A DNA stretch of 64,000 bases from the IMG/VR virus record IMGVR_UViG_3300031862_000640; one strand, given 5' to 3'. A program made the position numbers and the translations under genes. The notes under the pieces are model-generated. The model was not told the DNA's origin. It saw only the letters and a program-made list of their open reading frames with translations, and did no database searches. Below, piece after piece: positions 14,662 through 58,496 of the stretch (position 1 is the first letter of the stretch; the number at the start of each line of letters is the position of its first letter). The stretch is from an uncultured virus (IMG/VR IMGVR_UViG_3300031862_000640). Taxonomy: Duplodnaviria; Heunggongvirae; Uroviricota; Caudoviricetes.

Positions 14662-14759
14662 CAGAACACCGACAGACTTTATAGTTAGAATGAGTAGTTA
14701 AAACTTTCGTTTAGTTTATTCAGACTGAACAGGAACCGCAACCTTCTTTGTTAGAATTA

Positions 14760-21486: not shown

Positions 21487-21490
21487 TTGC

Positions 21491-23240: not shown

Positions 23241-24082
23241 CTTACTTCCTCCTTTTGTTGGGAAACCCTATTCTTTTGCCTAGTCACATTATAAATAATG
23301 AGGGCGAGGTTGAAGACCGCATATCCAATATAGAATGTTAAGGCTCCAGGAGTGAGCATCAGCCAGCCCATTCCTGTTGCTGTGACGACTATGACGTTGT
23401 ATGTTCCGTGCACCGTTATGGCGGCTAAGAGACTCTGGGTTTTCCATAGTATTGCAAAGATTATGATCCCAGCAACCCACGCGGCTAAGACGAGCTGCCA
23501 GATCAGAGGTCCTAGATAGGCGACGTACGCGTGAAGTACTGACCAGAATGAGATGGGTGCAAGAACACTGACCCACTTATTGTATTTATCGTTTTCAGGA
23601 TAACGGCTGGCAAGGTAAATGTATAATGCGTTGTGTCCTACGAGTTTTGTGGTTTCCTCACTGTTAGCCACTAAAGCAAAATTGGTGAGAACTGTCATGA
23701 TGAAAAGTGTGACGTCAAAGTGTACAAAGTCAAGGTTCATCTGTGCAAAAGTCGGAACGTATATGGCGGTTGTCGTCCACGGACGAGAGATTACAGCCGC
23801 GAAGACGAATACGCCTATGATGGCCAGCAATATCGTTATTCCATCTTTGCCGCTAAGATTTTCGACGTAGTTCACAAGATTGCGGGTATCCTGATAATGC
23901 ACGAAGATGAGTATCAAGGCAATCCAGTTGAGCGACAGCAGAATCGTGTAAAAGATGACCTGCGTCTGCATAGCCGAGTTTCCGCTGGAAGCTGCCTGCA
24001 ACCACGAGTGGGCAGTAATGTATGCGGTAAGAGCTTCAAACAGTATGAACGCAGCGACATCCTTCGTGGTATGCGTGCTCGT
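23213..24082 (-). CDS. CPBP/CAAX (Abi-family) intramembrane protease
   Basis: EET.K, FWSVLH and AAITVHGTYN motifs; frame open upstream to ACG at 24082. Confidence 0.8.
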   Translation of the reverse strand, partial: TSTHTTKDVAAFILFEALTAYITAHSWLQAASSGNSAMQTQVIFYTILLSLNWIALILIFVHYQDTRNLVNYVENLSGKDGITILLAIIGVFVFAAVISRPWTTTAIYVPTFAQMNLDFVHFDVTLFIMTVLTNFALVANSEETTKLVGHNALYIYLASRYPENDKYNKWVSVLAPISFWSVLHAYVAYLGPLIWQLVLAAWVAGIIIFAILWKTQSLLAAITVHGTYNVIVVTATGMGWLMLTPGALTFYIGYAVFNLALIIYNVTRQKNRVSQQKEEVRCARSRNLR

Positions 24083-24173: not shown

Positions 24174-25277
24174 TTATGCGTAGGTGATCTGTTGCGTTGT
24201 GGACTCTATGACGACTGTCTGCGCATAGTTTAGTTCGTAGACATTGACTGTCCATACGATTTCATTGTCAGAAGCCAAAGATGTTTGAATGCCGAAAGTA
24301 AGGTCTTGTTTGTCAAAGCTGTTCTGTGGATACTCCCAGAGTAGGGCATTTGAAAGGTCAGTTGCTATTGTGTAGGTCCAGATTTGGTATGTGTCAGTCA
24401 ACTGGTATCCGGCGCTACTTGCTTGATAGTTCCCTTTGCCAGGTATGTTCACGCTAATAAGAGATGCTAGGGAAGGCAATGTAGTGTTGCACTTGATTTC
24501 AATCTTGGTGACAGCTACGCCTGTCTTCACTGTGCCCATAGTCATGTATGGCGCGAAATATGAGATTTTCGAAGCCGCTGTTGCACCTGTAATGTTTGCT
24601 CCTCGGGTTATAGAAGCCGAAGCCGAGATTTCGTCGAGATAATAGCCTGTGAACGTAGTTGATGGATAGCCGCTTGCAGCTGCAGGCACGTTAGCCATGT
24701 TCCACTTTATCATTACTTCCTTAAGGTTGTCACCATTTGCATCCACAAATTGTGAGCCTACGGCTCTGGCGTTCATAGCGAGAACTTTGGCGATGTCTGG
24801 AATGTATGTTTGAGTGCTGTATGGCTGCATCATGACGTAGACGTATCCTTGGTCCGCGTCGGTAACTTCCACGTTCGTTCCAGAGCCGCCGTGCGCACCT
24901 AGCAGTATCCAGTTTGCGCTTCTGTACGCCCAGAAACTCTGGACAACGTCTGTTGCCGTCAGACCTGCGGAAATGTCCAAAGTATTGTAGGCGGTGTCAA
25001 ACATTGAGAAGGTGCCCCGAACACCATATACCGGAGGAGCTGTCGTTGGTTGCCAGCCTGTAACAGTGAATGTGTACCATGCGTTCATGTCTGTTCTGAA
25101 AAACGTTTGTCCTATCAGTGGATTAAATGGAAAGATTGTGCCGCTTGTTGATGGCTGTTGTGCTCCTGGAGCTGGATAACCTATTCCAGAGAACGCATTG
25201 TTGTAATACGCGAAGACAATAGCGAGCACTAAAACTGCGACGAGTCCTACCTTATGTACGTCCTTCATTCTGTTCAA
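24174..25277 (-). CDS. secreted beta-rich protein, candidate major envelope/structural protein
   Basis: N-terminal TM, Ala/Thr/Gly-rich, own terminator, within membrane-protein block. Confidence 0.5.
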   Translation of the reverse strand: MNRMKDVHKVGLVAVLVLAIVFAYYNNAFSGIGYPAPGAQQPSTSGTIFPFNPLIGQTFFRTDMNAWYTFTVTGWQPTTAPPVYGVRGTFSMFDTAYNTLDISAGLTATDVVQSFWAYRSANWILLGAHGGSGTNVEVTDADQGYVYVMMQPYSTQTYIPDIAKVLAMNARAVGSQFVDANGDNLKEVMIKWNMANVPAAASGYPSTTFTGYYLDEISASASITRGANITGATAASKISYFAPYMTMGTVKTGVAVTKIEIKCNTTLPSLASLISVNIPGKGNYQASSAGYQLTDTYQIWTYTIATDLSNALLWEYPQNSFDKQDLTFGIQTSLASDNEIVWTVNVYELNYAQTVVIESTTQQITYA

Positions 25278-25987: not shown

Positions 25988-28018
25988 TTAGCGAATCCTA
26001 CGGGAAACTGATTGTTTTTGGGAAACTGGTGATTTTCGCTTGGCCAACACTACGACGGACGCGGCCATTACAGCAATCACGGAGCCGACGACGATCCATT
26101 CCCATGGAATCGTGGAGGGTGGTGGTGCCCCTTGTCTCACGAGGCTCACGGTTACTTCCTTGGGTATCCCAGGAGCCACGCTTACAGTTTGGAATGATGC
26201 TTTATACGTGAATGTTTCCATAGTCGAAATCGACACGTCTCCCGAGTATGGCACGCCGCTGGTTGCCAAAGTCCATTGTATCACGCCATATTGGTCTGAG
26301 AAACCTGATTGCGTAGTTCCGCCTGTCGCTGGATACTGTATTTGAACGCTAATTCCGGAAACCCATAGGTTGCCAGTCTTCAGTGGGTCGATAACCGTGA
26401 TTCTCAGTAAGGTTTGCTGAACGTTGAACTTCTTTGCTATGCCAGTCACGGAGTCTTCGCCCGTCAGGGTGTTGCTGTACATTTCATAGCATTGAACCGT
26501 AACCTTAAACTCGATGTCCGCAGGCACTCCAGCGTTTGTCACATCGAAATAAACGATTACGCTCTCGCCCGGACTAAGTGTTTCGGTTCTCTGCGAAGGC
26601 CAGACTGCTAATTGTGGAATGTTGACGCTCGCGTAGACTCGAACTGAGCTTTTTACACTTGACATTTGGGTTAATGTACATACAATTTTGTCGTTTACTA
26701 TTAGGTTAGGTTGGTATTTCGTGCCTGTGCTTGCCCAAACAAGCGCTGGTTGCACGTTAGAGATTTGTGGTCTGTCAACCCATGTGTCAGCGAGTTCTGT
26801 TGGAACACGGAAGGTGATGAGTGGAACGCCGTAAGCGCCCCATGGAATGTTGACCTTAACTTGCATGTTTACAGTGTCCAATATCCAACTGTCGAACGTT
26901 TGGAAAAGACCTGTTGCCAAGTTTGCAACCCCTTTGAACTCAAGAAACTCTGTCAAGGAATAGTAAGCTCTTTTGTCAGCGGGCAGTTGGCTCTTGTCTG
27001 CCGGGAAAATCACTGGTGCTATTGGATCTCTCTTGTATGTCCATGTGTCATCTGATGCTTTCCATCCCCCGTAACGGTCTGTATCAATCATGCTAACCCC
27101 GCCCCACACAGTGCCTACAGCTGGCTTGTATCCTGCAGGCGGCATCCACGCATAGTATTTTGCCGCCCACCTGTAATATTGTCCGTACCAGTAGAGTGAA
27201 TAGGCGTCTGATGAACCGTCGCGGATGCGTTCAAGTTGATCTCCGATAAGTAAAGCTGGGTCGAAACTGACTCCTTTGTCGTAGGAAATGTATCGGAACG
27301 CTGAAGCCATGTCATAAGCGTAGTCGTGGCTGAAGAAAGCCATCTGTCCCATTATTGGCACTTGAGGTTCCGTGTAGACGCCGCTCAAGTAGCCGAGGTT
27401 TTCAATTCTTATGGCTTTGCCTATTGAGGGAACGGGTATTATTGCGGTCGTCTGGTTTCCACCATTGTCTAATTGCACATGCGCAACTTCCACGCCATCT
27501 TTCAAGATAGTAACCCAGAAAGGCGTGTGAACTTCCCAGCCAGTTTCAGCCCAATCATAGGTTATTGCATTGACTGCCTGTGCGTCTGCCTCGCCTGGCG
27601 TTGCCCCGCCGTTAGGTAGGATTTTGTTCATCCAGCTTCGATAAGTCAGCGGTGTCACTTGGTAGGGTACTGCGCGGATTCTCCGAAGCAGATATGGCAG
27701 ATCGGGATCCACTCTGATTTCTATTGATGCTCCAGTGTGAAAAGTGTAGCCTGTTCCGTTAACGGTTTCGGTGTCTGTTTGATTAACTGGCACCGTGAAA
27801 CCTGCGAGGTCGTCGGAAGCTGATAAGGCTGTGGTCATCGCCCAGAAACTTCCCTTCCACATACCATTTGCGTCTGGATAGCCTTGAGGGTCAACTTCTA
27901 TTTTTTGCACAGTAATCCATGTGAGTCCTTGGTAAGTTTCAAGGTAGTAGACTGCCGCTCCAAGAAGTATGACGAGAAGCACTACTGTAATGAACTTCTT
28001 TTGTTGGTCATTCTGCAT
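25988..28018 (-). CDS. spike-like membrane protein, paralogue 1
   Basis: N- and C-terminal TMs; shares GxWxGSxW, WExHTPF and TELAD blocks with 28667-31222; start MQNDQQ after AGGAG. Confidence 0.75.
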   Translation of the reverse strand: MQNDQQKKFITVVLLVILLGAAVYYLETYQGLTWITVQKIEVDPQGYPDANGMWKGSFWAMTTALSASDDLAGFTVPVNQTDTETVNGTGYTFHTGASIEIRVDPDLPYLLRRIRAVPYQVTPLTYRSWMNKILPNGGATPGEADAQAVNAITYDWAETGWEVHTPFWVTILKDGVEVAHVQLDNGGNQTTAIIPVPSIGKAIRIENLGYLSGVYTEPQVPIMGQMAFFSHDYAYDMASAFRYISYDKGVSFDPALLIGDQLERIRDGSSDAYSLYWYGQYYRWAAKYYAWMPPAGYKPAVGTVWGGVSMIDTDRYGGWKASDDTWTYKRDPIAPVIFPADKSQLPADKRAYYSLTEFLEFKGVANLATGLFQTFDSWILDTVNMQVKVNIPWGAYGVPLITFRVPTELADTWVDRPQISNVQPALVWASTGTKYQPNLIVNDKIVCTLTQMSSVKSSVRVYASVNIPQLAVWPSQRTETLSPGESVIVYFDVTNAGVPADIEFKVTVQCYEMYSNTLTGEDSVTGIAKKFNVQQTLLRITVIDPLKTGNLWVSGISVQIQYPATGGTTQSGFSDQYGVIQWTLATSGVPYSGDVSISTMETFTYKASFQTVSVAPGIPKEVTVSLVRQGAPPPSTIPWEWIVVGSVIAVMAASVVVLAKRKSPVSQKQSVSRRIR

Positions 28019-28666: not shown

Positions 28667-31222
28667 TCAGTATTTTTTGCGGCTGATGGGTGGACGTCGG
28701 TCCACCAAGACCAGTCCAAAACCTACGACAACAAAACCAACGCCGAGGAATTGCAGATATGTGTAGTCCGTCACTGGTGGCTTCTGCACAAATAATGCTT
28801 GGATTACATATGTCCCTGAAGTGGAAAGTGTGACTGAATCCGATAGCAGTGTGCTATGTTGAATGTTGTTGACGACCCAAGCACCGAATTCGTATCCTGC
28901 ATGTGGTGTTGCTGTCATGTTGAACTGTGTCCCGATTGGAAATTGGTAGGTTCCAGCAATTGGAGTTATATCGCCACCTTGTGTTGTACCGATAATCACG
29001 GTTGCTTGACTGACGCTGTTAGGTTCGAAGAAGACTCCGATGATTTCTATGGCTTGAAGGTTGGTTATGATGATTGGCGGAAGTGAAGTAATGATGGTTG
29101 AGCCACGCATGACTTTTACGTAGTGGTGTCCAGTGGATGCTGTGGCTTGAATTGTGAGGTCTGTTCCTTGAACATATGTTGAAGGGTAGTGTCCCGCTAT
29201 GGGATTCGTAGTGCCCTGTCCGCTGGTTGAGATGGTTACATCTGAATATTTTGGTGGAATAATGCCCGGATTGAGGATGGCATTCAAAATTTTAGTGTCC
29301 AAGATTGTGCCTGCCTGATTTTTCAATTGTAAAGTAACACTGCATGCTTTTGCGGATGGAACGCCATTGTTGGTGGCCGCAAAAGACAAGCTGTTAGATG
29401 TGGCAGGAGCTAAAGTTAGCGAGTTTTGTGCAGGGTTTATGTAGAGTTCTGACGCTGACGCTGATGCCTGAACGATGTAGGTGCCTTGAATTGTGCAATT
29501 ATTGTATATTGTCGAAGCAAAATTCTCTGTTGCGCCGTCTTCGATAGTTATTTGGTCATTTCCCGTTCTCGACCATACGAGATTAGTGAAGTATCCAGTC
29601 ACAACCGCAGGTGAATAGATGACGCTGTCGGCAAGTTCAGTGCTTATTTTGGTGGTGACGAGGCTGTTGGCAGCACCATACGGCAGGTTGATTCTTAACG
29701 TACCGGAGCCGATGGCGTATCCTTGCCCCCAAACATCCGGCGACCGTCTGTGATAACCCTGATTATCAAGATAACTTTGCAGGTTTGTGATGGTAGGCGC
29801 GTTAGCGGTGTAGATTTCGTTGGTAGTGTCCGCAGACCAACCGATTGGATATGGAGAACTAAGACCGTTTGGCGTTATGGCGCTTGTGGCATCGCGATGA
29901 GGCCCATACCAATACTTAGAGAAGGAGTTGGAGGCGACATCAAATTTGACCACATTATCAATAGCGTATTCATTCACGTACGCAACATTATCGACGAAGT
30001 AGAGGTCGGGTAGCGAGATATCGTAACCAGTCGTCAATTTGCCAAGCTCTGTAACATAGAATGTCTCGGCGGGGTCATTCGGATTAGTCATTTGAACTGG
30101 ATTTATCCCTCCAACAGTATCGAAAGTTTGTGTAATGTCAAACAAATTCTTGCCAACTGTCTTCTTCAATTCCAATTGAAACGGAGTATGTAGTTCCCAG
30201 TAAGACGTGGAGAAAGTGCGTGTAGGCACGTTTAAAGCAGGAGCAGTTCCTGCCGGATTGTTAGATTCCCAATGAAAGTTGTCAACCCAGTCAAGCCCAT
30301 GAGATGGGGAGAAAGGTCCGAACCAGAATGACGGTATGACTGTTTCTGATATTAGCGTATAGTCGTGTGTTGCGAACTCCACCCAAGTGTATCCGCCGTC
30401 TAAGGCAGCGTTGGTCAGGCTGTAATACCAGTGAAGTTTGTTGAGCCCGTACGTGTCCCAGCTGATTTTCCATGCGCGAACGGATCCCCCAGAACGTGGT
30501 AACGACCCAGACCAGACGCCAGTTTTTGTGTTTGTCGGCCAGTCATACTTGTTGATTGACGACCCACCAGTGACCCCGTATCCGAAGCTATAAGTCTGTA
30601 CAGTATATCTGCCATCGACATTTAAATCGAACCAGAAACTATCGCCCCCGCCGTTTGTGTCAAGCTGGATGTAGGTGTCTCGAATGCTCTTGGCAGCACA
30701 AAATACGCCGTCCAACACGCGGTCCCCGCCTGGGAACTCCATTCGTTGATTCACTATTCTTGTTGATTGTGGTTCACCGTAATGTTGCCAAAAGAACTCC
30801 CAATATGAAAGTTGAAGGTTCTCATCGAAGGTGTCGTATCTGCCGAGCAGATTATTGACTACAGGCGTTGATTGAACTGTCGTCGTACTTAACGCCCGCA
30901 GGTAGTAGGGTTGCTGCGGAGTGATTGTCATTTCGACAACCGCCTGCGGAACTATCTTTTGACCACTAATCGCGTCTTGACCGTAGAGTACAGACTGCGA
31001 ACTGTCGAACTTGTAGTAGAGGTAGGATTCGCTTGCGTCAGCTAGGAACGTCACAATCCAGTATGAACCGTGCCACTCACCATCTGCACCAGAAGACCCC
31101 TGCTGTAGAATGTAAACGTTTGACGCTGAGATAATGGTCATCGGCAGTAGACCAGTGTAAGGAACAATAAGCATTGCTAAACCGCAGAGAACAAAAATAG
31201 ATCCCAAAGCAGATTTGCCCAT
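28667..31222 (-). CDS. spike-like membrane protein, paralogue 2
   Basis: N- and C-terminal TMs, extra internal domain, two InlB-B-repeat-like units; start MGKSAL. Confidence 0.75.
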   Translation of the reverse strand: MGKSALGSIFVLCGLAMLIVPYTGLLPMTIISASNVYILQQGSSGADGEWHGSYWIVTFLADASESYLYYKFDSSQSVLYGQDAISGQKIVPQAVVEMTITPQQPYYLRALSTTTVQSTPVVNNLLGRYDTFDENLQLSYWEFFWQHYGEPQSTRIVNQRMEFPGGDRVLDGVFCAAKSIRDTYIQLDTNGGGDSFWFDLNVDGRYTVQTYSFGYGVTGGSSINKYDWPTNTKTGVWSGSLPRSGGSVRAWKISWDTYGLNKLHWYYSLTNAALDGGYTWVEFATHDYTLISETVIPSFWFGPFSPSHGLDWVDNFHWESNNPAGTAPALNVPTRTFSTSYWELHTPFQLELKKTVGKNLFDITQTFDTVGGINPVQMTNPNDPAETFYVTELGKLTTGYDISLPDLYFVDNVAYVNEYAIDNVVKFDVASNSFSKYWYGPHRDATSAITPNGLSSPYPIGWSADTTNEIYTANAPTITNLQSYLDNQGYHRRSPDVWGQGYAIGSGTLRINLPYGAANSLVTTKISTELADSVIYSPAVVTGYFTNLVWSRTGNDQITIEDGATENFASTIYNNCTIQGTYIVQASASASELYINPAQNSLTLAPATSNSLSFAATNNGVPSAKACSVTLQLKNQAGTILDTKILNAILNPGIIPPKYSDVTISTSGQGTTNPIAGHYPSTYVQGTDLTIQATASTGHHYVKVMRGSTIITSLPPIIITNLQAIEIIGVFFEPNSVSQATVIIGTTQGGDITPIAGTYQFPIGTQFNMTATPHAGYEFGAWVVNNIQHSTLLSDSVTLSTSGTYVIQALFVQKPPVTDYTYLQFLGVGFVVVGFGLVLVDRRPPISRKKY

Positions 31223-36476: not shown

Positions 36477-36935
36477 TTAACGTAGCATTATGGTTGGGGG
36501 TTTTTGGTTTTTGTCTCCTCTCCAGTTGAGTGTAACTCCACCGTAGCCGTCGCCTTTGTCGCCCATCCATCCGCATTTTGGACATTTTGCTCTAAGGACT
36601 TCTGCGATTTTCTTGGCGTTTCGTTTGAAGTCTGCTTCGGTCTTCATTAACGGTCGAGCTGCGTCGATTCCGCCGCTGAACTCTTTGACGTTGCCGACGT
36701 ATCCGCATTTGAGGCATTTCGACCAGTGTTCTCCCTTTGGCTTGTGTTTTGCTAGGGTGTCAGACATGGCTTTGATAGTTTGGTAGGCTTTGTCTCGAGG
36801 AACGATGGCGGTGAAGGCTACTTTGGTGACGATGAATTTCTTTCTAAGGTCGGACTGTGACTTGGTAATTGGATGTGTTTCTCCATCTTTGCCTGTGTAG
36901 AATCCGACAACGCTATCTTTAGTGTGCTTTCGCAT
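36477..36935 (-). CDS. VGFY-module protein 1, zinc-ribbon cargo
   Basis: VVGFYTGKDGETHPITKS; CLKCG...CPKCG. Confidence 0.8.
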   Translation of the reverse strand: MRKHTKDSVVGFYTGKDGETHPITKSQSDLRKKFIVTKVAFTAIVPRDKAYQTIKAMSDTLAKHKPKGEHWSKCLKCGYVGNVKEFSGGIDAARPLMKTEADFKRNAKKIAEVLRAKCPKCGWMGDKGDGYGGVTLNWRGDKNQKPPTIMLR

Positions 36936-37004
36936 GTCTGTTCAAGATAGAAATACCCGTTTTAATTTTTTCAGAAAATTGGTTCAGACTGTTTCATAGC
37001 GTAA

Positions 37005-37949
37005 TTATCTGCGTTTAGTCCTACGAAGCCGTTTGAGATGATGCTTGCTTGCCCAGACTTCTGGTTCTTTCTGAAGTGAATGTTCTATAGAGGTTGCGGC
37101 AGCTGAGAAGTGCTCACCCGCCAGTCTTACTTTTTCTTCCTTGGGAAGCGAGTTGAACAGGTCATCGATCTTATCATTAATCGTTTTCAAACGAGCTTCT
37201 AACCTATGAACTCTCCGACTTCGACCAGGATAGGAACGAGCGTCAACTGTTCGTTGTAACATTAAATCTACATTTACGTGTTCTTCCTCTAAAGCTGTAA
37301 TCCGTTGTTCAACGCTTCTTTTACCGCCGCCGTGGTGTGTTCTGATGATGGGTGTGAGCATGGGTGTGCCGAACTGTTTCAGGTAGACCCACTCTTTGCG
37401 TTGTACCTTGTTGATGTGTTTGTCGTAGTCTGTCCATTGTTCTGGAGTGTGGTTTTTGAGGAATGTGCGGTGTTCGATTGTGTCTGTTACGTCGTGGGCT
37501 TCGATGTCTGGTTCTAAAGTATGGTTTTCGGTTAGGTCTTTTTCGATGGCTTCGTGGAGACTTGCGAATGGATAGTATTTTTTGTATACGTTGTCGTCTA
37601 TGTAGACTTCTGGTTTGGTTCGGCTCCAGGATGCTGCCCAGAATTCATGGGGCACGATTACTATGTCGTCTTCAACGTGTCTGCCGTCAAAGTCGAAGCT
37701 GATTTTTCCGTAGCGTAGGACTTTTGCGTAGCGGTGCTGTTTTGCGTCAAAGATGTACTCTGTTTTAGGACGTGTGTATGGAGCAAGTTTGATGTTGGTT
37801 GGGTCGAGAGCTTTCAGTCGTCTGATTAATGAGTGTTTGGTCGGGGCTATGGTTTTGAAATGTTGAGACCCCTGAATCTTTTTTCTCGAAAATTCGGAGA
37901 GAGGTTTGGTGATGGGTCTAACTTCTTTGTTTTTGGTGAAAAAACCCAC
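37005..37949 (-). CDS. VGFY-module protein 2, HExxE metal-binding cargo (start uncertain)
   Basis: VGFFTKNKEVRPITKP; EVYID...LHEAIE...AH. Confidence 0.75.
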   Translation of the reverse strand: MGFFTKNKEVRPITKPLSEFSRKKIQGSQHFKTIAPTKHSLIRRLKALDPTNIKLAPYTRPKTEYIFDAKQHRYAKVLRYGKISFDFDGRHVEDDIVIVPHEFWAASWSRTKPEVYIDDNVYKKYYPFASLHEAIEKDLTENHTLEPDIEAHDVTDTIEHRTFLKNHTPEQWTDYDKHINKVQRKEWVYLKQFGTPMLTPIIRTHHGGGKRSVEQRITALEEEHVNVDLMLQRTVDARSYPGRSRRVHRLEARLKTINDKIDDLFNSLPKEEKVRLAGEHFSAAATSIEHSLQKEPEVWASKHHLKRLRRTKRR

Positions 37950-37965
37950 AGCTATTTTTCGCTGT

Positions 37966-38181
37966 TTATTTTTTCTTCTTGCGATGCGTGTTGTTGCCGT
38001 GATAGTACGCCACCTCGTAAGAGACCAAACCTGATAAGAGTCCGATTGCCGCCACATCATAGATAACGGTGCCTGTCGTCAAGTTATAATGAACAGCGAT
38101 GAGACTGATAATGACGAACACGACCGCGTAGATGAGTGTGTGCAACTGGTGAATTTTTCTTTGCAATTCGTGTTGTTTCAT
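37966..38181 (-). CDS. small two-TM protein
   Basis: TATTTCT element at 38193-38199. Confidence 0.6.
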   Translation of the reverse strand: MKQHELQRKIHQLHTLIYAVVFVIISLIAVHYNLTTGTVIYDVAAIGLLSGLVSYEVAYYHGNNTHRKKKK

Positions 38182-38199
38182 GTTCTCAGAGTAGAAATA

Positions 38200-38685
38200 T
38201 TAATCAATCTTTATTTTCCCTGTTACAAGCAAGCCGCCAACAAGAGCTAAAACAAACGGGGTTACAACATATGTCAGAACATGTAGCACTTCAATATTCT
38301 GAATAAGTTGACTCCACAAAAACCAGACTGCGCCGTCTTCGGCTTGCAGATATACATTGGACATTCCCGTCAACGATCCGTTGGTGACGTATTGAATGTA
38401 GGCTGATTCCCAGTCGACCGTGATGAAGAAAGCAAAGGTGATTAGAAGCAGTCCAAGGGTTTCGATCTTGTCGTCAATCTTGATGCCGAAGACTGTGAGT
38501 CCTAATCTGCTGAGAACGTAGAGAGATGCGTAGAGAATGATGTAGTAGACGATGAGACCTGCGAATGGTGATAGGCTGTTCAGCCATAAAATCCATTGGC
38601 GGGTCGTGAAAAAGAAGCCCATAACAGCTATCGCAATGGCAAGGCTCAATTCTTTTCCTGTCAACTCAAACTTTTTTGGCTTCAT
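38200..38685 (-). CDS. multi-pass membrane protein
   Basis: About 4 TMs; TATTTCT element at 38699-38705. Confidence 0.7.
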   Translation of the reverse strand: MKPKKFELTGKELSLAIAIAVMGFFFTTRQWILWLNSLSPFAGLIVYYIILYASLYVLSRLGLTVFGIKIDDKIETLGLLLITFAFFITVDWESAYIQYVTNGSLTGMSNVYLQAEDGAVWFLWSQLIQNIEVLHVLTYVVTPFVLALVGGLLVTGKIKID

Positions 38686-38739
38686 CTTTGCTCACCAGAG
38701 AAATACATGGAAAAGGGTTCGAGGGAATAATCGGAAAAA

Positions 38740-39528
38740 TTAAAAGATGCTCTCTATTTTTGGCATGATTACTCTTTTCAACAGTTTCTTGTCTTTCGGA
38801 TAAAATTCAAAATCGTTGTCGCCTTTCCACAATCCTTCCAAGCGGTTTTTATCCGTTAGAAGGTAGTAATCGCCTTTCCCAATCCATTCTATAATCGCAC
38901 CCTTTTTATGCGGGGAAGCAGTTTTCGGTTTAAAGGCATGTATAACTTTGACAAGCACTTCATCAGGCTTTATCGGATTGTAGGTTTCCAAAGAGTCTAA
39001 AATGTGTTTTCTACACTTCGTGAGTAGTTGAGGGTCAATTTGTTTCCACGCTGAGATTTCATCGCGCAACCGCTCAACCATGTCTTGTTTGTTCATGAAA
39101 CGGTCCCAGTTGTCAAAATTCATTTTCTTTCCTGTTTTCAGAAAGTCTCTAACATGGTTTACTTCATGTTGGAGTGATGCTTCTCTTTCGGACGCAGACA
39201 TTTTCCGCACTCTCTGCAGTTCAACATAAATAGTCGGATAGTCTTCGTAGGCAGCCATTCCTACGGCTACTTCTTGTGTACTCCGCATCTCACGCGGCAC
39301 ATTAAATTCCAGACCTAACGCTCGCATTTTATGACGCTTACAATAGTCTTCAAGATTGCGTTGCATGAACGTTTTAATTTCGCTGAGTGATCCCGTTGGA
39401 GCGATCGCCTTCAGCGGTTGGGTATTCGACACTAATTTCTTGCGCGTCAAAGAGGCAACAGGTTTAGTGACTGGCTTAGTCTTCCCGTGGTCACGATAGA
39501 ATCCAACAGCAACTCTTTGTTTCTTCAC
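38740..39528 (-). CDS. VGFY-module protein 3, HExxH zincin-like cargo
   Basis: AVGFYRDHGKTKPVTKP; LQHEVNH...DEISAW. Confidence 0.8.
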   Translation of the reverse strand: MKKQRVAVGFYRDHGKTKPVTKPVASLTRKKLVSNTQPLKAIAPTGSLSEIKTFMQRNLEDYCKRHKMRALGLEFNVPREMRSTQEVAVGMAAYEDYPTIYVELQRVRKMSASEREASLQHEVNHVRDFLKTGKKMNFDNWDRFMNKQDMVERLRDEISAWKQIDPQLLTKCRKHILDSLETYNPIKPDEVLVKVIHAFKPKTASPHKKGAIIEWIGKGDYYLLTDKNRLEGLWKGDNDFEFYPKDKKLLKRVIMPKIESIF

Positions 39529-39629
39529 GATAGAAAAATAGCGAGACTTAAGCGCGCACCTTAAACCGTGGAAAATGAAACTCTGGATTTAAATTGGAAA
39601 ATTGTTTCTTGTTTCGTGGCGTATTAGTC

Positions 39630-40346
39630 TCACTTTTTCCTGAGCCGCGCCGCTTTTTTTGCTTCTTCTTGAACATGCTTGCAAGTTCTTGGTTGATCGC
39701 GTTTCTTGAAGATCCAAGCTGGACAATTGCACGAGAGCCCACCTTTCGGTCCTTGAAGCACAGTATACTTTTTGCCTGGTGTGGATGAGCTGGGATAGGT
39801 GGCCATGATTTTGTATCCTGATTTTGATGTTCTTGTGCCTGCTTTCTTCAGAATCTTCTTCCAGCGTTGGCTTCGCTCTTTCCTCATGCCATCAAGAAAG
39901 GCGAGATCCTGCTTGTAGATTCTATCGAGCTTTGTGTCGTCCTTGGTGATGTTGACTAAGAACTGTATTCGCGCTCTGCACACGTTGAAGCCTTCAGCGT
40001 TGACGCATTTGACAAGATCCATCTGGCGTACTTCAGCAGAATTGTTCGGGTCATAACCGTATTTCTTGAGAGCGCCTGCCTTGACGTGACCGCTGACCTT
40101 GGCTGCCTGTCCCCATTTTTTCGGTTTTATTCCGGGGAACTTTTTACCCTTCTGAACGACTTTCTTTCGTTTGATTTGTGCAATTGGTTTTGTGATAGGT
40201 TTGGTTTTTCCGTGTTCCTTGTAGAAGCCGACGACCTTACCTTTGCTTTTACGCTTCGGCTTTCTCTTACGCAGATTAGCCAAACGTGTCTTGTAAGCCT
40301 TCTTGCCTGCAGCAACCATCTTCAAACTCTTGTGTTTACCAGACAT
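39630..40346 (-). CDS. VGFY-module protein 4, helical domain plus SWIM zinc finger
   Basis: VVGFYKEHGKTKPITKP; CNCPAW...CKHV; start MSGKHK. Confidence 0.8.
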   Translation of the reverse strand: MSGKHKSLKMVAAGKKAYKTRLANLRKRKPKRKSKGKVVGFYKEHGKTKPITKPIAQIKRKKVVQKGKKFPGIKPKKWGQAAKVSGHVKAGALKKYGYDPNNSAEVRQMDLVKCVNAEGFNVCRARIQFLVNITKDDTKLDRIYKQDLAFLDGMRKERSQRWKKILKKAGTRTSKSGYKIMATYPSSSTPGKKYTVLQGPKGGLSCNCPAWIFKKRDQPRTCKHVQEEAKKAARLRKK

Positions 40347-40382
40347 CTCGACCACTACATAAGAAATACATAAGAGGTTTAG

Positions 40383-40408
40383 AGAAAGTTTTAACTACTG
40401 GTTAGAAC
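40383..40408 (+). promoter_or_regulatory. BRE/TATA promoter with overlapping inverted repeat, repeated at 41101-41126
   Basis: AGAAAGTTTTAACTA(C/G)TGGTTA(G/C)AAC, 24/26 identical; core also near 14695 on the minus strand. Confidence 0.65.
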
Positions 40409-40430
40409 TACATGTGAGAAGAGGAATAAA

Positions 40431-40745
40431 ATGGTTAAAGTTGTTGAAGTACATAATGAGTACGCAGAAAGAATGGGTAGAGTCCGCAGCGCGATTAGCA
40501 ATGTTCCTAAGGGTTATGAAGTTGCTTTAGACAACTGCGGTTGGGCTAATTACAACATATATAGAAAAGGGAGAGTATTCAGCCATAGAATAGGTTGGAT
40601 ACTTATTCCAAATTGTAATCCAGATTGGGGCAAACGAGATGTTCGTATAACACTTAAGTACGCACAAGATTTAGAAGCGGTCAAGCTTATCGCAGAACAA
40701 ATTGAGAAAGCTGATTTTGACGTAACGATAGAAGTTCAGGCTTAA
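40431..40745 (+). CDS. hypothetical protein
   Basis: GAGGA RBS, promoter upstream. Confidence 0.6.
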   Translation: MVKVVEVHNEYAERMGRVRSAISNVPKGYEVALDNCGWANYNIYRKGRVFSHRIGWILIPNCNPDWGKRDVRITLKYAQDLEAVKLIAEQIEKADFDVTIEVQA

Positions 40746-40788
40746 TTTAGCATAATAAGGCTGTAGGTTTCTCTATTGAAAACCTTAA

Positions 40789-41097
40789 ATGCGCTTGTTC
40801 ACAAAACTAAGTGGAAGAAAAATGAGGAAAAGCCCAAAAAGCATCAAGAAAGAGCCATTAGTTGACATTTGGACTTTAGTGCATGTGCTCGCAGGCATAT
40901 TTCTTGTTGCACTGTCGAAACGTTTTTTTGGTATTACATCTGGCTTTGCTGCTGTTTTAGCTTTCTTTGTGCTTTTGGCTTGGGAAGTTGTTGAATATGC
41001 TCATACTCCAGAGTACTACAAGCGTAATTTACATAACAATGTGGCTGATGTTGTTGCGGATTTGGTGGGAATAGCTTTAGCTTTGATGCTTGGGTGA
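40789..41097 (+). CDS. small membrane protein
   Basis: DIWTLVH...WEVVE...N.VADV motif. Confidence 0.6.
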   Translation: MRLFTKLSGRKMRKSPKSIKKEPLVDIWTLVHVLAGIFLVALSKRFFGITSGFAAVLAFFVLLAWEVVEYAHTPEYYKRNLHNNVADVVADLVGIALALMLG

Positions 41098-41115
41098 GAT
41101 AGAAAGTTTTAACTA

Positions 41116-41562
41116 GTGGTTACAACCAATAGGTCTGTGGCGAATATGATGGATAAAAGTAAAATAGCAAGATTGATTGCTGTCGGCTCGCTGGTAGCAA
41201 TTCTTTTAACCGTCGCTGTCTTAGCTCTGACAAATTGGAGTCACACCGTCAACTGGGTAATCCCCAAAACTGCGGATATCAAAGTCTACACGCCCGAAGG
41301 AGGTGAATTGGCAACAGCAGGCTTTGAAAACATAACCTCAAACAGTTTCTTCGGAACGTACGTCATTGTCAACGTGGGCAACAGCAGGATTCATGTGACT
41401 GCCACTGAAACGTGGACTAACAAAGGGTCAGGCACCGCAACTTGGACAGGTTTACCGGCAGACATTGATATTGGCAAAAATGTGACTGTGACACTAACCC
41501 TCAACAACTTGCCATCAGGCACAGGGATCTTCACATACTCGTTCAACCCCTCGCCGCTCTAA
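41116..41562 (+). CDS. secreted beta-rich protein
   Basis: Signal peptide; NVGN...TLTL Ig-like pattern. Confidence 0.6.
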   Translation: MVTTNRSVANMMDKSKIARLIAVGSLVAILLTVAVLALTNWSHTVNWVIPKTADIKVYTPEGGELATAGFENITSNSFFGTYVIVNVGNSRIHVTATETWTNKGSGTATWTGLPADIDIGKNVTVTLTLNNLPSGTGIFTYSFNPSPL

Positions 41563-41590
41563 AGAGGCTTTCTTGCTTACCTTCATGTAA

Positions 41591-42865
41591 TCAATGATGC
41601 TTAACGCTGGTGGATATCCTCTTATTTTTTCTACGTTTCGCCTTGTCTTTAATGTTGATAGTAGCCTGATGTTTTGGCTTAATGACTCGAGGTGGCAGTT
41701 TCCACGGCTTCTTGTTTTTTGGTTGGACGGCTTGGAATTTGCGTGGTTTCTTAACAAGCCTTGCGCGTGTGACTTCACGAACCGATTTTGTTATGGGTTT
41801 AACTTTCTTGTCTTCATCTCGGTAGAAGCCGACCAGCACACGACCGTGTCTTGAAGCCCAGGATTTATAGCCCGCAATTTCCATCTTTGAAAGGCGTACC
41901 TTGCCTTTGATTTTGAGGGTTTGAGGCTTCTTTGTTTCCGCTTTCGGTTTCCATCCGTGTTGTTTTCTGGTCTCCCATGACCGCTTTCCAGCTTCGGTCG
42001 CGTCAGCCGAGCCCCTGTACTCGACACGTTTCCTGTGTTTCTTCTTCTCAACGATGGTGCCTGCAGTAGGCTTCGGTGGAGGCGCTGGCCATTTTGCAAC
42101 TGTAATACCGGGCACACCAACTCTGGAAGGGTCGACATATTTCAGAAGGGCGCGATAGTGTTTTGTTGTGCGTTGGTATTTCTTGTATGCTTTCTTGAGA
42201 ACCCGTTTGCCTTCGAGTTTTTCCAAGCGACCTTGAACGCTGGCACGTTTCTGGGTCACTACGTCCAGAGCGTTTGTAGCCTTTTTTAGCTTGCGCTCGA
42301 AAGTGCGTGTATTCTGTATGTCTCCATCATGTCGGTACTGGGCAAGTTTGTTTTTGACGTCAGCGATGCTCTTGTTTCTGAATTGGATGTTGTGGTCAAG
42401 CAGTTGCAGTTGTGTTTCAAGCCTTACAGATTTGCGGTCGAATGTGGCTGCTTTGACTATTTCGTGAGCTCCACACTTCGGGCATGTTGTCAACCTTCGG
42501 TCTGTCCATGGACGCTTGAACCATTTTCCACAGTTGGCACATTGGTAGCCCTCAACATACTTGCGCTTGACGAGTTTAGCCTTCGACTTCAGAATCTTCG
42601 GCTTCGGAAATTTGATTTTGACTAGCTTGCCTTCACGTTTCAGCTCTCCCTCAGACGTGTAGACGCGCCTACCATACCTTGCTTCGATTCTGCCTGGCCG
42701 AGGCTCATAGATTTCGCCGTAACGTTTAAGGTTCTTTAGAGAGCTCTCAAATTCGCCTTTGGTCATGATTTTGTGTCTATTGACAATTCTGTCTTGAAGA
42801 AACTCTGGCGTGCTGAACGGAAACCTCTTAATGAATTTCAGCAGCTCGCTTTCAAGATAGCCCAA
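41591..42865 (-). CDS. VGFY-module protein 5 (wHTH, zinc ribbon, coiled coil; module C-terminal)
   Basis: LKRYGEIYEPRPG; CANC..CPKC; LVGFYRDEDKKVKPITKS. Confidence 0.8.
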   Translation of the reverse strand: MGYLESELLKFIKRFPFSTPEFLQDRIVNRHKIMTKGEFESSLKNLKRYGEIYEPRPGRIEARYGRRVYTSEGELKREGKLVKIKFPKPKILKSKAKLVKRKYVEGYQCANCGKWFKRPWTDRRLTTCPKCGAHEIVKAATFDRKSVRLETQLQLLDHNIQFRNKSIADVKNKLAQYRHDGDIQNTRTFERKLKKATNALDVVTQKRASVQGRLEKLEGKRVLKKAYKKYQRTTKHYRALLKYVDPSRVGVPGITVAKWPAPPPKPTAGTIVEKKKHRKRVEYRGSADATEAGKRSWETRKQHGWKPKAETKKPQTLKIKGKVRLSKMEIAGYKSWASRHGRVLVGFYRDEDKKVKPITKSVREVTRARLVKKPRKFQAVQPKNKKPWKLPPRVIKPKHQATINIKDKAKRRKNKRISTSVKHH

Positions 42866-42898
42866 AGTTTCTCAAACAAGAAATAGTCATAAGCGATT

Positions 42899-43081
42899 TC
42901 ACTTGTTATTGTGGTACTTCTTTCCAACGAGTAAACCGATGCCTAATGCAAAGAGAGCCACCATATAAGTTTCATGATGAAGTTGACTTACCGTAAACCA
43001 TTCTCCGTATACCAAGTGTTGCTGTAAGGAAATGAGAAAAGCTCCAAAGAAACATAGGTAAGCGTAGTGTTTGAGTTCCAA
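42899..43081 (-). CDS. small two-TM protein
   Basis: TATTTCT element at 43095-43101. Confidence 0.6.
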   Translation of the reverse strand: MELKHYAYLCFFGAFLISLQQHLVYGEWFTVSQLHHETYMVALFALGIGLLVGKKYHNNK

Positions 43082-43125
43082 AGTCTTTCAAGAAAGAAAT
43101 AGGGAGCTACTTGAGAACTTCTGTT

Positions 43126-43587
43126 TCACCTAAATCCTCTAAGGAAGCCCTTTGCCCTAACAAGGATTATGGCAACCGATGTCGCTATGGTTGTAAAAGC
43201 TATCTGTATCTGAGTAGTACATGTTCCAAATAGTTTGTATGCTAGCATCCATGTCCATTCCCCCGTTGGAAATTGACCCTTTCCCCATACACCATAAAAG
43301 ATGAGGTCTTGACCTGCAGATAACACAAAGGCCTCCAACACCATGCACAGCCTCCAAGAATGTGTATAAAGATAAATCCATACAATAGTCATTTGGAACA
43401 GCAGAAGATAAACAATTGAATCAGTCGCAAACCAAGCATCGCTATACTGCAGACCGTACTTGTAAAAGTCACAATTAATCAAGTAGTCAATTCTCGTAAA
43501 TAGAAGAGTTGCAAAAATGAACACCGCAATCGCTATGTCATTCTTTGACAAATCATCAGTTATGACAAGTTTCTGCTTCTTGCGCAT
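43126..43587 (-). CDS. 153-aa membrane protein, copy B
   Basis: Close paralogue of 22779-23240. Confidence 0.8.
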   Translation of the reverse strand: MRKKQKLVITDDLSKNDIAIAVFIFATLLFTRIDYLINCDFYKYGLQYSDAWFATDSIVYLLLFQMTIVWIYLYTHSWRLCMVLEAFVLSAGQDLIFYGVWGKGQFPTGEWTWMLAYKLFGTCTTQIQIAFTTIATSVAIILVRAKGFLRGFR

Positions 43588-43649
43588 CTTACGTCTCCGT
43601 CCAAATTCTCAAGATAGAAATAGGGAGTCTTTCCTCAACAAAGAAATAG

Positions 43650-43904
43650 TTACCGTAGCCCTCGGCTCTGTTTCCATCTACGAAGCCCAGCATACTTCTT
43701 GTTTGCCTTGTCGTATCGATACGCACCGTAGACCAATAGAACGAATCCCAGAAACATCAAAAGATAGCAGTATTCTTGCTTGAAAGTTGGATAACGTGCC
43801 TGGACCTCAGAGAAATACGCGAGAGAAACTCCTCCAGCTGCCAAAAGAAAAGCTCCGACAACGGCAATCAATTCGTATTGGCTGAGCTTCTTCAAAGTGC
43901 TCAC
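43650..43904 (-). CDS. small two-TM protein
   Basis: GTGA overlap with upstream gene. Confidence 0.55.
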   Translation of the reverse strand: MSTLKKLSQYELIAVVGAFLLAAGGVSLAYFSEVQARYPTFKQEYCYLLMFLGFVLLVYGAYRYDKANKKYAGLRRWKQSRGLR

Positions 43905-44929
43905 CTATCTTCACGCGTTGGCAAAGGTTTGGTAATAGCGCGATAGGTGATTGGAGGCATAGGCTTGTCAATGTCACGCTGATATTCTTCGAGAGCACGC
44001 TTAACCTCAAGCGCAGAAAGACGCCGACCAAAATGTTCTTCATATTGCTTCTGGATGTACGGAACATTCCAAGTACGTTTGCTGAAGGGATCTGAGTCTG
44101 TATCTACAATACCCATTATCCGACACGACACATCACGCCACGATGTTTTCGCGCTTGCAGTCTCTATTTTCAAGATTTTCCTTATTCTGTACATTTGCTT
44201 TGCCGTTGCTTCCGCCCAGCCTTTATTTCCTCCTCGAACGGGTCTTGTATCTTTCCGCCCTTCAGGCGTTATGAATGTGACGTAGTATAGGCGACCGCCC
44301 ATCTTTCCGTTAAGTATGTCGTCTTCGGATGCAATTCCCCATCTTCGGGAATGTGCAACTTCGGAAAGAGGCGGTGAATAGTGTTTTCTTGGAAAGCGGC
44401 GATGTTGAATGATATACCCCTCATTGTCTTGCATGAATACGCGGTCTGTACTGCGGTCGTCTTTTTCTTCAGCAACTATCTCTTTGAAAGCGAGGTTGGC
44501 CCTTTTGATCTCTTTAACATTTCTGATCTTGAACGACGCTAAAGGCGCACTAACAGTGTGCACTCCTTTTGAGAAGAACACACGTCTAATCGACCAAACT
44601 CTTCCGCCCTTTGGTTTAGGAGTGACCCCAGTTCTTCCGTGTTTAAAAGCTACGACGGTATCTCCTTTGAAGCGAAGTTTAGTGCTTCCAAATCCACCAG
44701 TCGACCTTGGTTTGACATTGCCGAATTTCTTGGAATTTTTAATAATCTTCTTTCTGTTCAACTCACGCGCAGAACGAGTGATAGGTTTTGTCTTGCCATC
44801 CTCATCTTTGTAGAAGCCGACAAGAACCCGACCGTCTTTAGACGCTTTCGCCTTGAAGCCAGCAATCTGCATTTTCTTCAAACGCAACTTTCGACCAGCA
44901 TCAACAAGTTTGACAATAGTTTTAGGCAT
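43901..44929 (-). CDS. VGFY-module protein 6, unknown cargo
   Basis: LVGFYKDEDGKTKPITRS; start MPKTIV after TATTTCT and GGTGAG. Confidence 0.8.
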   Translation of the reverse strand: MPKTIVKLVDAGRKLRLKKMQIAGFKAKASKDGRVLVGFYKDEDGKTKPITRSARELNRKKIIKNSKKFGNVKPRSTGGFGSTKLRFKGDTVVAFKHGRTGVTPKPKGGRVWSIRRVFFSKGVHTVSAPLASFKIRNVKEIKRANLAFKEIVAEEKDDRSTDRVFMQDNEGYIIQHRRFPRKHYSPPLSEVAHSRRWGIASEDDILNGKMGGRLYYVTFITPEGRKDTRPVRGGNKGWAEATAKQMYRIRKILKIETASAKTSWRDVSCRIMGIVDTDSDPFSKRTWNVPYIQKQYEEHFGRRLSALEVKRALEEYQRDIDKPMPPITYRAITKPLPTREDR

Positions 44930-44949
44930 TCTGCTCACCAAAGAAATAG

Positions 44950-45555
44950 TCATGGTAAGACTATTGGACCGATTACGAGTAACCAAAGGGCGACGGCCAT
45001 ACCTCCAGCAACTAAGGTGCCAAGTAACCATGTCATTTTGTTTTTGTCACTCTCGTCAGATTTGTTCAAGAATTGAAAAGAGAGATATAGGAAAATAATG
45101 CCCAGAGTTAAAGTTAAAAGAGGAATAGAAGACCCAGAAAGACCCAATATTGTGCTAAGCGAATATTTGTCGCCATGTTCTAACCCTATCAGGTCAATGG
45201 CTGAGTCAAACGCGTCTACGCCGCAAATTAGGATAGCGGGAGAAAAATAGACGAATGCCTTAGATTTGAAGGTGTACAATAATGAAACTAACGCTGCGAA
45301 ATAGAGGATGCTCCAACCCGCAGCGATAATGATAAAGGCTTGCGTACTGTTAGCTATTGGTATAGGACATTCAATCGAGTCATAATGGAAAGTTACTGGA
45401 TAGCCAAAAAGAGTATAGGCTAAGTAATGACCTGTTTCGTGAAGAGGGCCCATAAACAAACCAAAAAAGAAAGAAAGAACAACAGCGTCCTCGAGTTTAA
45501 TGTTCCAGACCATTTTGCTTTTCACCAAATCTTTTACACCAAAGCTTTTAGTCAA
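44950..45555 (-). CDS. M50-like membrane zinc protease
   Basis: LHETGH next to a TM, AAG motif, downstream GD. Confidence 0.65.
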   Translation of the reverse strand: MTKSFGVKDLVKSKMVWNIKLEDAVVLSFFFGLFMGPLHETGHYLAYTLFGYPVTFHYDSIECPIPIANSTQAFIIIAAGWSILYFAALVSLLYTFKSKAFVYFSPAILICGVDAFDSAIDLIGLEHGDKYSLSTILGLSGSSIPLLTLTLGIIFLYLSFQFLNKSDESDKNKMTWLLGTLVAGGMAVALWLLVIGPIVLP

Positions 45556-46463
45556 TCAGGCGTTATTTTGTAGCCAGCGTAAACGGTTTGTCGGCCGAAG
45601 CCTGCGTTGATAGGTTGGACTTTGAAACCGTGTGTCCTAGCTTGTTTCTGCATCAACCCATCCAACGCTTTCAACTGTGCATCTCGAGTGCCATCTGGGA
45701 AGCTGCCATAGTTGTCTAAGAAAAACTTTCGTTTCTCGTTACCATCGCCTATTTTAGCGTAGATGCAAGACCCATCTGTCACGGCGACTATCATCGACTT
45801 TTTGACTGGCAAACCGTTGAAGAACCTTCTTATCTGTGGCGCAGGACTGCCGAAAGCGTCAAAGTCAACGACCGTCAAGTTGCTCAGTTTTTCTTGAGGC
45901 AGTTCTTGTTCAAGCCACTTCAAGTTGTTGGCTCTCACAATAACATGGCTTTTGCCCTTCAGTTTAGCAGCGGCCTCACGCAGATACTCAGCGTTCTTGT
46001 CCACGAGGATTATCTTCTTTGCTTTATGTTTCCAGACCTCAGCAGACAGATTGCCTTTTCCAGCGTACAATTCCAAGACTGTGCCAGGACTCATTTTTTG
46101 CAGAAGGGCGCGGCGCTGCCACTTCTTCGCAGGGGTCAGATCGGGGCTTCCTGAATAATGGAATATTGGGTTCGGCTTCTTCGCATGAGCACCTGCGCTC
46201 TCATAACCTCTGGTCAGCTGCGACGATTCCAAGGCTTCAATGGGAACACTGTCGACAACACCTTTGTGTCTATCATAGATGCCCAAGTGCACCTCTGCGC
46301 CTTTCATCACGTATATAGGTCGACGCTGCCAACTGGGTTTCGGAAGCCGTAATTTTGAAGGGTTCACAATGAGCTTCTTACGGTTCAGGTCGTTGAAAGA
46401 TTTAGTGATAGGCTTAGTTTTTCCATCTTCACGGTAGAATCCGACGACCGTTCGAGTTGCCAT
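45552..46463 (-). CDS. VGFY-module protein 7, SAM-dependent methyltransferase cargo
   Basis: VVGFYREDGKTKPITKS; VLELYAGKG, ILVDKN, VVDFDAFGSP. Confidence 0.85.
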   Translation of the reverse strand: MATRTVVGFYREDGKTKPITKSFNDLNRKKLIVNPSKLRLPKPSWQRRPIYVMKGAEVHLGIYDRHKGVVDSVPIEALESSQLTRGYESAGAHAKKPNPIFHYSGSPDLTPAKKWQRRALLQKMSPGTVLELYAGKGNLSAEVWKHKAKKIILVDKNAEYLREAAAKLKGKSHVIVRANNLKWLEQELPQEKLSNLTVVDFDAFGSPAPQIRRFFNGLPVKKSMIVAVTDGSCIYAKIGDGNEKRKFFLDNYGSFPDGTRDAQLKALDGLMQKQARTHGFKVQPINAGFGRQTVYAGYKITPD

Positions 46464-46476
46464 AAATGCTCGATAA

Positions 46477-46483
46477 AGAAATA
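46477..46483 (-). promoter_or_regulatory. TATTTCT-N4-YR upstream element, representative copy
   Basis: About 16 copies shortly upstream of start codons between 21815 and 46483. Confidence 0.75.
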
Positions 46484-47470: not shown

Positions 47471-47899
47471 ATGAGAAAAATGCAAAAGGCATCAGCAAAG
47501 AAACAGGTCAAGACCCCCAGCAAGAACAAACCCAGCAAGCCAAAACTAACTTGGCGCAAGAAAGTTGACTGGTCAGCAGCAGGACGAAAGGCTTACGAAA
47601 CACGCATAAAGAATCAGAAGAAGGGCAAGAAAGGCAAGGTAGTCAAGACGCAGAAAGTGAAACCACAGAAGAAAGTGGAAGCCCAGAAGAAACCGACACA
47701 GAAACAGGTCAAGCAGCACGGCAAGAAGAAGACCGTGGGCTTCGGAAACTATCGTGTGAACCGTGATGATCTGGTCAAGAAACTGCAAGCCAGCAAGAAG
47801 ACAGAGTTTGCGCCGACAGAAATAGTATCACTGACATGGGAAGTAATCAAAAGTGCAAAGGCGTCGGCATCGGCAAATAACGGTCGAAAGCACAAGTGA
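47471..47899 (+). CDS. Lys-rich basic protein
   Basis: GGAGG RBS; AAGRKAYETR motif. Confidence 0.7.
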   Translation: MRKMQKASAKKQVKTPSKNKPSKPKLTWRKKVDWSAAGRKAYETRIKNQKKGKKGKVVKTQKVKPQKKVEAQKKPTQKQVKQHGKKKTVGFGNYRVNRDDLVKKLQASKKTEFAPTEIVSLTWEVIKSAKASASANNGRKHK

Positions 47900-58145: not shown

Positions 58146-58496
58146 ATGAGCAAAAACCATAAGCCTAAAAAGGCTTCCAGTAAGAAGAATAAAAAAGTAG
58201 AGAAGAAGCCAGTCCATGTCTGCGGCGCCATCAATGGAGTCATGGGTAAAGGAGCGTTTTCGAAAGAAGGCGACAAATTCCGCTGCGTAGAATGCGGGAA
58301 AGTACACGACAAGATTCCAGAAGGATACATGGCAGCACTTAAGAAACTAAGTCCAAAGAAAGCGGCCTTGCTTGAAAAGGGTGCGAAGAAAAACAAAGAT
58401 GCGGCAAAGAACCCGATTATGGTCGAGGCTGGGAAGAAGTCATGGAAAACACGAAGAGAGAACGAGGCAGCCAAGAACAAGAAGCAGAAAAAGTAA
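58146..58496 (+). CDS. Lys-rich zinc-ribbon protein
   Basis: HVCG...CVECG; EAGKKSWKTRR motif. Confidence 0.7.
   Translation: MSKNHKPKKASSKKNKKVEKKPVHVCGAINGVMGKGAFSKEGDKFRCVECGKVHDKIPEGYMAALKKLSPKKAALLEKGAKKNKDAAKNPIMVEAGKKSWKTRRENEAAKNKKQKK

Follow-up and report, generated by a model that had tools for sequence, protein, structure and literature searches.

The stretch of DNA analysed here, 64,000 nucleotides (nt) of an uncultured virus (IMG/VR record IMGVR_UViG_3300031862_000640, hereafter the window), raises the question why seven genes with seemingly unrelated products should share one short protein module between positions 36477 and 46463. The contig from which it comes measures at least 75 kb, and the 64 kb do not make up the whole element. 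The module was found to be a real and undescribed family, conserved at the protein level and attached to soluble cargo that is exchanged freely, and it is best read as a portable address tag. On balance, we favour the reading that this tag stays uncleaved and loads proteins into a fusogenic membrane particle that would deliver them together with the genome, its binding partner being either DNA or a protein.

A first-pass annotation, made from the sequence alone, had assigned the module to seven open reading frames (ORFs), and a six-frame scan, an alignment and an independent hidden Markov model (HMM) all recovered the same seven, all on the minus strand, with no further strict match in the window. 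The HMM, for which 48 sequences from outside the window were used, none of them reaching 70% identity to a window tag, scored the seven at 38.8-70.8 bits (independent E-values 6e-11 to 6e-21); the next window match had 6.4 bits and the best of 30 codon shuffles 12.0 bits. The tagged window proteins were of 152-424 amino acids (aa), with the tag at or near the N-terminus in six and at the C-terminus in one, as annotated, and the cargo labels proposed earlier agreed with the motifs present. Every match in a Pfam scan of the seven proteins was under the cut-off. Tag A (36798-36911, ORF 36477-36935) is joined to a zinc-ribbon cargo with two CxxC motifs, tag B (37842-37952, ORF 37005-38000) to an HExxE cargo (HEAIE) and tag C (39397-39510, ORF 38740-39528) to an HExxH zincin-like cargo (HEVNH). 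Tag D (40122-40235, ORF 39630-40346) is found with a basic leader, a DUF5771-like domain and a SWIM-like finger. Tag E (41720-41836, ORF 41591-42865) is the C-terminal copy, preceded by a zinc ribbon with two CxxC motifs and a helical region. Tag F (44708-44824, ORF 43901-44929) follows a basic leader and precedes a cargo with no labelled motif or known family in a variable slot, and the N-terminal tag G (46341-46448, ORF 45552-46463) precedes a methyltransferase-like cargo with an S-adenosylmethionine motif and weak Pfam methyltransferase matches.

The most likely starts of ORFs 43901 and 39630 are ATG at 44929 and ATG at 40346. For ORF 37005, which overlaps the end of a 71-aa membrane gene, the start is most likely ACG at 38000, because the relatives L008:11793 and L015:16460 have ATG at the matching place; the change is a synonymous CAT-to-CAC in the overlapping membrane gene (37966-38000). 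A +1 frameshift fusing the membrane gene to ORF 37005 was dropped because the relatives have an ATG of their own.

A profile of the seven sequences searched against 1.84 billion representatives produced 114 clusters at E ≤0.001, two of which (P0046 and P0080) were cadherin-repeat false matches; the remaining 112 include at least three of the window's own proteins. The tag comprises a core of 15 residues (VVGFYxDxxGKTRPIT) and an extension of 23 residues found in the window's group, its overall length ranging from 15 to 38 residues. In a second group (L026-L043, L052 and others) the extension is missing, and as many as six tandem genes each begin with the core. Among 111 aligned matches G was invariant, F, P, T and V were conserved at 91-99%, and K and R interchanged. 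The tag started within 15 residues of the N-terminus in 67 matches, at residues 16-65 in 34 and after residue 65 in 10, C-terminal and internal copies being among these last. Two very large proteins (2374 and 2592 aa) hold three and four cores. At the DNA level, 81 different core sequences were compared: all four codons were in use for G, P, T and V, synonymous sites being saturated and residues fixed. Since the synonymous positions vary freely and the peptide does not, selection acts on the peptide.

The AlphaFold2 model of the tag (predicted local distance difference test (pLDDT) 85, predicted template modelling score (pTM) 0.39) showed strands at residues 2-9 and 15-21, a helix at 22-30 and an extended tail, and the tag is thus predicted to be a beta-hairpin plus a short helix. 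A homodimer prediction scored 0.02 and was counted neither for nor against. The tag had no match in Pfam, PHROGs, NCBIfam and PDB-sequence searches, in agreement with the earlier remark that it was not recognised as a named family, and fold searches with a 45-residue model gave best E-values of only 0.84 and 0.40. The sequence and fold searches lent no support to a likeness between the tag and the short hairpin motifs found in head proteins of bacterial phages. No description of the tag was found in the literature searched by motif letters and topic, although supplements, figures and subscription papers could hold one.

Cargo was very diverse among the relatives, which extended the first-pass observation of variable cargo behind a constant module. 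With tags and leaders masked, 218 tagged sequences (library proteins and loci, overlapping) fell into 80 cargo groups, some trivially short, and the 95 library proteins with at least 50 cargo residues into 49. One and the same leader and tag precedes several unrelated cargos with the sequence break at the tag end, and related contigs compared at 85% likeness part at tag boundaries. Tag identity reached ≥70% in 58 of 4337 different-cargo pairs, with a median of 51% across cargos and 56% within. Two loci syntenic with the window (L008 and L015) have seven tags each, with four cargos kept and the other slots varying.

Matches above the Pfam cut-off were obtained for PolX thumb, nucleotidyltransferase, GNAT, DUF5661, ATP-dependent ligase, MoxR-type AAA and ART-PolyVal (9e-13) cargos. 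DUF5771 also passed it, at 4e-16, as did the fusellovirus VP2 domain (PF25632, E 6.5e-15), which forms the C-terminal part of one tagged family (L026:1511-2101, P0159, P0167, P0170). Weak matches were found for vWA, zincins, a clamp-like protein, HNH, methyltransferase, MPTase-PolyVal, LPD1 and an anti-restriction-like protein (1.5e-4), and most cargos had no family at all. A Ku-like label for L052:14695 was not supported, and the PCNA-like label for L029:2988 and the HNH label for P0004 were weak. A membrane-like segment was present in one of 112 tagged proteins; among the window's remaining ORFs, some of them spurious, the figure was 34 of 72. The repertoire of VP2, ligase, MoxR AAA, ART-PolyVal, PolX, nucleotidyltransferase, GNAT, DUF5771 and anti-restriction-like cargos fits co-delivery with DNA. 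VP2 is a virion structural, DNA-binding protein (excerpts of PMC9608457 and PMC10848311), and polyvalent proteins with such domains have been proposed to travel with DNA (excerpt of PMC5512222).

The tag was rare in the cellular genomes scanned. A metagenome scan produced 43 loci with 104 tags, 29 of the loci having two or more, and many of the loci being near-identical strains, so the counts are not independent. One 107-kb contig held three loci with 13 tags together. GTDB, scanned with a narrow pattern, gave one locus, in a Bathyarchaeota metagenome-assembled genome; the tag was present in 5 of 401 genomes of its class and 3 of 401 of its phylum, and a core profile on the same class gave 7 of 401, two of them false. 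Matches in G045 (integrase-like frame) and G147 (internal stop) were rejected. Source names of other tagged records included Thaumarchaeota and Methanosuratincola. Three scans of IMG/VR for the tag and one for relatives of the fusexin-like family described below found neither, GenBank phages gave a single tag match at chance level, and the ESM Atlas gave tag matches under 0.9 and none for the fusexin-like protein. This distribution therefore marks the tag as a mobile-element feature, and the ordinary DNA-binding repeat common in cells that the first-pass annotation had considered was not what these counts and the family searches showed. Separately, two seemingly secreted bacterial proteins, P0173 and P0194, begin with a near-perfect core (E 0.06 and 0.26), which may be chance or a wider range.

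The tagged genes also share an upstream sequence with envelope genes, as the first reading of the window had noted for structural genes. A TATTT(T)CT element lies about 12-22 nt ahead of six of the seven tagged starts, 27 nt ahead of the first fusexin-like gene and ahead of several membrane genes. Minus-strand copies begin at 46483 (46477-46483), 44948, 42885, 40368, 38705, 38199, 36955, 31249 and 25965. Between 21001 and 46500 the element occurred 20 times on the minus strand and nine times on the plus strand, against a shuffle mean of 2.6 (maximum 9 in 200 shuffles), and it accompanied 40 of 88 tagged genes in a count made without a control. An archaeal TATA box would normally lie farther from the start codon than the 12-27 nt seen here, and the element is for that reason named a shared 5' signal, probably of late genes.

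The tagged genes are followed downstream, without a change of strand, by a block that encodes membrane-anchored proteins. It includes two tandem paralogues (E 4e-12), fusexin-like envelope protein 1 (28667-31222, 851 aa), so classed by paralogy, and the predicted fusexin-fold (class II) envelope protein 2 (25988-28018, 676 aa). The family has 13 members at 90% clustering and no name. The 676-aa protein was folded with 14 sequences (pLDDT 77, pTM 0.47) and has helices at residues 2-28 (N-terminal signal or anchor) and 637-659 (C-terminal membrane helix). In a Foldseek search of the model the top ten matches were all HAP2 or Fsx1 (E 5e-11 to 9e-10), followed by alphavirus E1. VIA-align also ranked two HAP2 structures first (Z 12.4 and 12.3), the Z 12.4 alignment spanning 334 residues at a root-mean-square deviation (rmsd) of 32.5; against C. 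merolae HAP2, 314 residues were aligned with an rmsd of 8.3 A and Z 9.9. From this model we read the 676-aa protein as a divergent fusexin-fold protein, with a class II ectodomain fold across domains I-III. Four motifs of the family were not found in the available text of supplementary file 5 of PMC9259645.

Other members of the block were an about 2000-aa membrane-anchored surface protein (15562-21627), whose homologues adjoin tagged genes in L009 and L017, and a 367-aa secreted or membrane protein (24174-25277) with a homologue beside the tag array of G097. Among the tagged genes themselves are the 71-aa hydrophobic protein (37966-38181), kept at the same place in L015, and a 161-aa hydrophobic protein (38200-38685) conserved in L008 and L015. 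The window also encodes PCNA, a HerA/VirB4-like ATPase, ParB and a ligase. Scans of 39 and 26 window proteins recognised no capsid, major capsid, portal, prohead protease or terminase gene; the HerA-like ATPase has a secondary match to a terminase-annotated PHROG.

The link of tagged genes to an envelope block, whose absence among homologues the first-pass annotation would have taken as a refutation, recurred beyond the window in L007, L009, L019/L025, L031/L039, L052 and L054, and the window's block was found to include a fusexin-fold protein. In L007 a fusexin-like homologue (E 1.7e-103) lies between two tagged genes. Tag arrays amid signal-peptide and membrane genes, several with a P-loop ATPase, were present in L031, L039, L019/L025 and L054, where searches for the fusexin family of the window gave no match. 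The element in L054 (10223-19638) and L055 is a compact integrated one of about 13 kb, with membrane genes, one tagged gene, an integrase and an ATPase matching phrog_5484, which we take to be a fusellovirus-type ATPase. L019/L025 is likewise integrated; its PCNA and further non-structural genes resemble those of the window, and it has a tagged PolX and a tagged zincin-like gene at separate places. In L052 (12615-19280) five tandem genes for a ligase, two unknown proteins, a vWA protein and a MoxR AAA protein all carry the tag or a divergent tag, and an Argonaute (Piwi) gene follows this array, in L053.

Taken together, these results make the loading tag introduced above somewhat more likely than not. 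The element would be an enveloped double-stranded DNA (dsDNA) virus or provirus of Bathyarchaeia-type archaea with no recognised capsid. Late in infection, the tag may recruit the tagged proteins to the genome-nucleoprotein mass at the budding membrane, through DNA binding or through contact with one viral protein that serves all of them. They would remain uncleaved and be released with the DNA into the next cell by membrane fusion. There they could take part in compaction, repair and protection of the genome and could also modify host targets. Recombination directly behind the tag would bring in new effectors. A second-hand excerpt of a meeting report describes such spread for an Fsx1 element, in budding vesicles by fusion, as a dsDNA virus (PMC13712861). 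The first-pass proposal of a portable tag that loads enzymes stood for portability, cargo diversity and the envelope link; a cleaved N-terminal leader of the T4 type is excluded by the C-terminal and internal copies.

Several observations weigh against this reading. Five tag-bearing genomes and the core-only group gave no match to the fusexin family of the window, solitary tagged genes occur in host-like DNA (L005, L013, L014, L056, L060), one tagged gene lies near a terminase-like gene (L058), and no receptor protein shared by the element groups was found. The fusexin assignment itself has low TM-scores (0.18-0.25) and large rmsd, plain Ig domains score Z 9.5-11.8, near the fusexin scores, and no sequence match to Fsx1 or HAP2 was obtained with a profile of 14 rows only. 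The window's ligase, PCNA and ParB are untagged, and the tag is therefore not a mark of all DNA enzymes.

The best surviving alternative, though an unlikely one, makes the tag a small module that binds nucleic acid and holds enzymes on the element's DNA, at chromatin or the replication site; it would do so only within the infected cell and have no part in packaging. DNA is the substrate of many cargos, the tag is rich in K and R, the tagged proteins have a median isoelectric point of 10.2 (9.5 for cargo alone), and a second basic leader motif is present in 20 tagged library proteins. The invariant positions, however, are G, F, P and T rather than the interchanging K and R, the upstream element is common to envelope genes and not to the replication block, one cargo is a virion protein domain, and the family and fold searches matched no DNA-binding family. 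Apart from this, a basic leader motif like that of tagged ORF 39630 was observed in two untagged lysine-rich proteins (47471-47899 and 58146-58496), possibly nucleoproteins.

We consider it improbable that the tag docks its cargo on one cytoplasmic hub (host RNA polymerase, ribosome, ESCRT, clamp or viral ATPase) and so positions effectors during infection. The invariant hairpin surface could suit protein recognition, the solitary copies persist in host-like DNA, and the Bathyarchaeota, Thaumarchaeota and Methanosuratincola sources would allow a conserved host partner; against this, nucleoprotein-like and tiny basic cargos have no obvious need of a hub, and the arrays are placed between envelope genes.

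More improbable again is that the element moves by cell-cell fusion or conjugation and that the tag is a translocation signal for proteins passed to the recipient, as with plasmid ArdC and primases. Fsx1 genes were first described on integrated elements with VirB4/HerA (excerpt of PMC9259645), the window has its HerA/VirB4-like ATPase, and an anti-restriction protein is the likeness of one cargo. The scans of window proteins recognised neither a relaxase nor a mating-pair gene, however, the VP2 cargo and the vesicle report (PMC13712861, as excerpted) point to particles, and cell fusion would mix the cytoplasm and make a sorting tag unneeded. Finally, promoter-plus-leader cassettes that capture genes by recombination and leave a peptide with no binding role would explain the breakpoints at the tag end, the upstream element that travels with many tagged genes and the contigs that diverge at tag boundaries, but this is very improbable given the fixed residues at saturated synonymous sites and the C-terminal and internal tags.

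Returning to the loading tag, a more specific form of it is possible but rather doubtful: the hairpin would be the code by which archaeal viruses with a fusexin envelope and no capsid sort their cargo. A conserved receptor, either matrix-like or bound to the genome, would read the code and so select soluble proteins for the budding vesicle, and class II fusion would then deliver a tegument-like kit of nucleoproteins, repair enzymes and counter-defence effectors. If so, the virus carries an exchangeable kit into the next cell. The matter touches on how archaeal viruses wrapped in a membrane, and elements carried by vesicles, select what they contain; the loading tags known so far come from tailed phages, which have proheads. 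Being present on more than 100 protein clusters, the tag allows cargo sorting to be tested directly, supplies a list of candidate counter-defence proteins of archaea and marks a group of fusexin-bearing elements not found in the IMG/VR scans, and it bears on whether archaeal fusexins are viral entry proteins.

Other features of the window were an Rce1/CAAX-like intramembrane protease (23213-24001) at the Pfam cut-off, within the envelope block, which could process envelope proteins, and a TnpB-like fragment recognised by eye (14804-15385) at the end of that block. A 153-aa membrane gene is duplicated (22779-23240 and 43126-43587, 82% identical over 300 nt), and an imperfect repeat near 14682 recurs at 40383 and 41101.

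Among known systems, the capsid-targeting sequence (CTS) of T-even phages is a roughly 10-residue, strictly N-terminal peptide that is cut off by the head protease, whereas the tag is a predicted hairpin, also C-terminal, internal and repeated, with no sequence link to it. Both place a short conserved tag on a diverse set of small proteins. The T-even internal proteins share only the targeting sequence, are diverse, are packaged with DNA and act in the new host, and the CTS is portable to foreign proteins; it targets the prohead scaffolding core of a tailed phage (excerpt of PMC3012670), and here no prohead was recognised. Polyvalent proteins and MuF effectors (excerpt of PMC5512222) have a similar repertoire of ART, zincin, GNAT, methyltransferase, nucleotidyltransferase and anti-restriction domains, and the two large tagged proteins resemble them, with ART-PolyVal or weak LPD1 matches. 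Several effector domains in one large polypeptide were found only in P0106 and P0108 and not in the seven window proteins; the tagged genes mostly have one small cargo each, in tandem arrays, are archaeal and share a hairpin instead of MuF, and no LPD or MuF model matches the tag. The Fsx1 elements (PDB 7P4L; excerpts of PMC9259645 and PMC13712861) are also archaeal mobile elements, and like the window they encode both a HerA/VirB4-like ATPase and a membrane protein of the class II fusexin fold, but here there are two tandem paralogues without a sequence match, and those excerpts describe no cargo tag. Fusellovirus VP2 (PF25632) is a cargo here, and the tag itself has no match to it. By analogy, the tag would work like a CTS or a MuF-type trafficking domain but belongs to neither, differing in position and structure and in having no recognised prohead.

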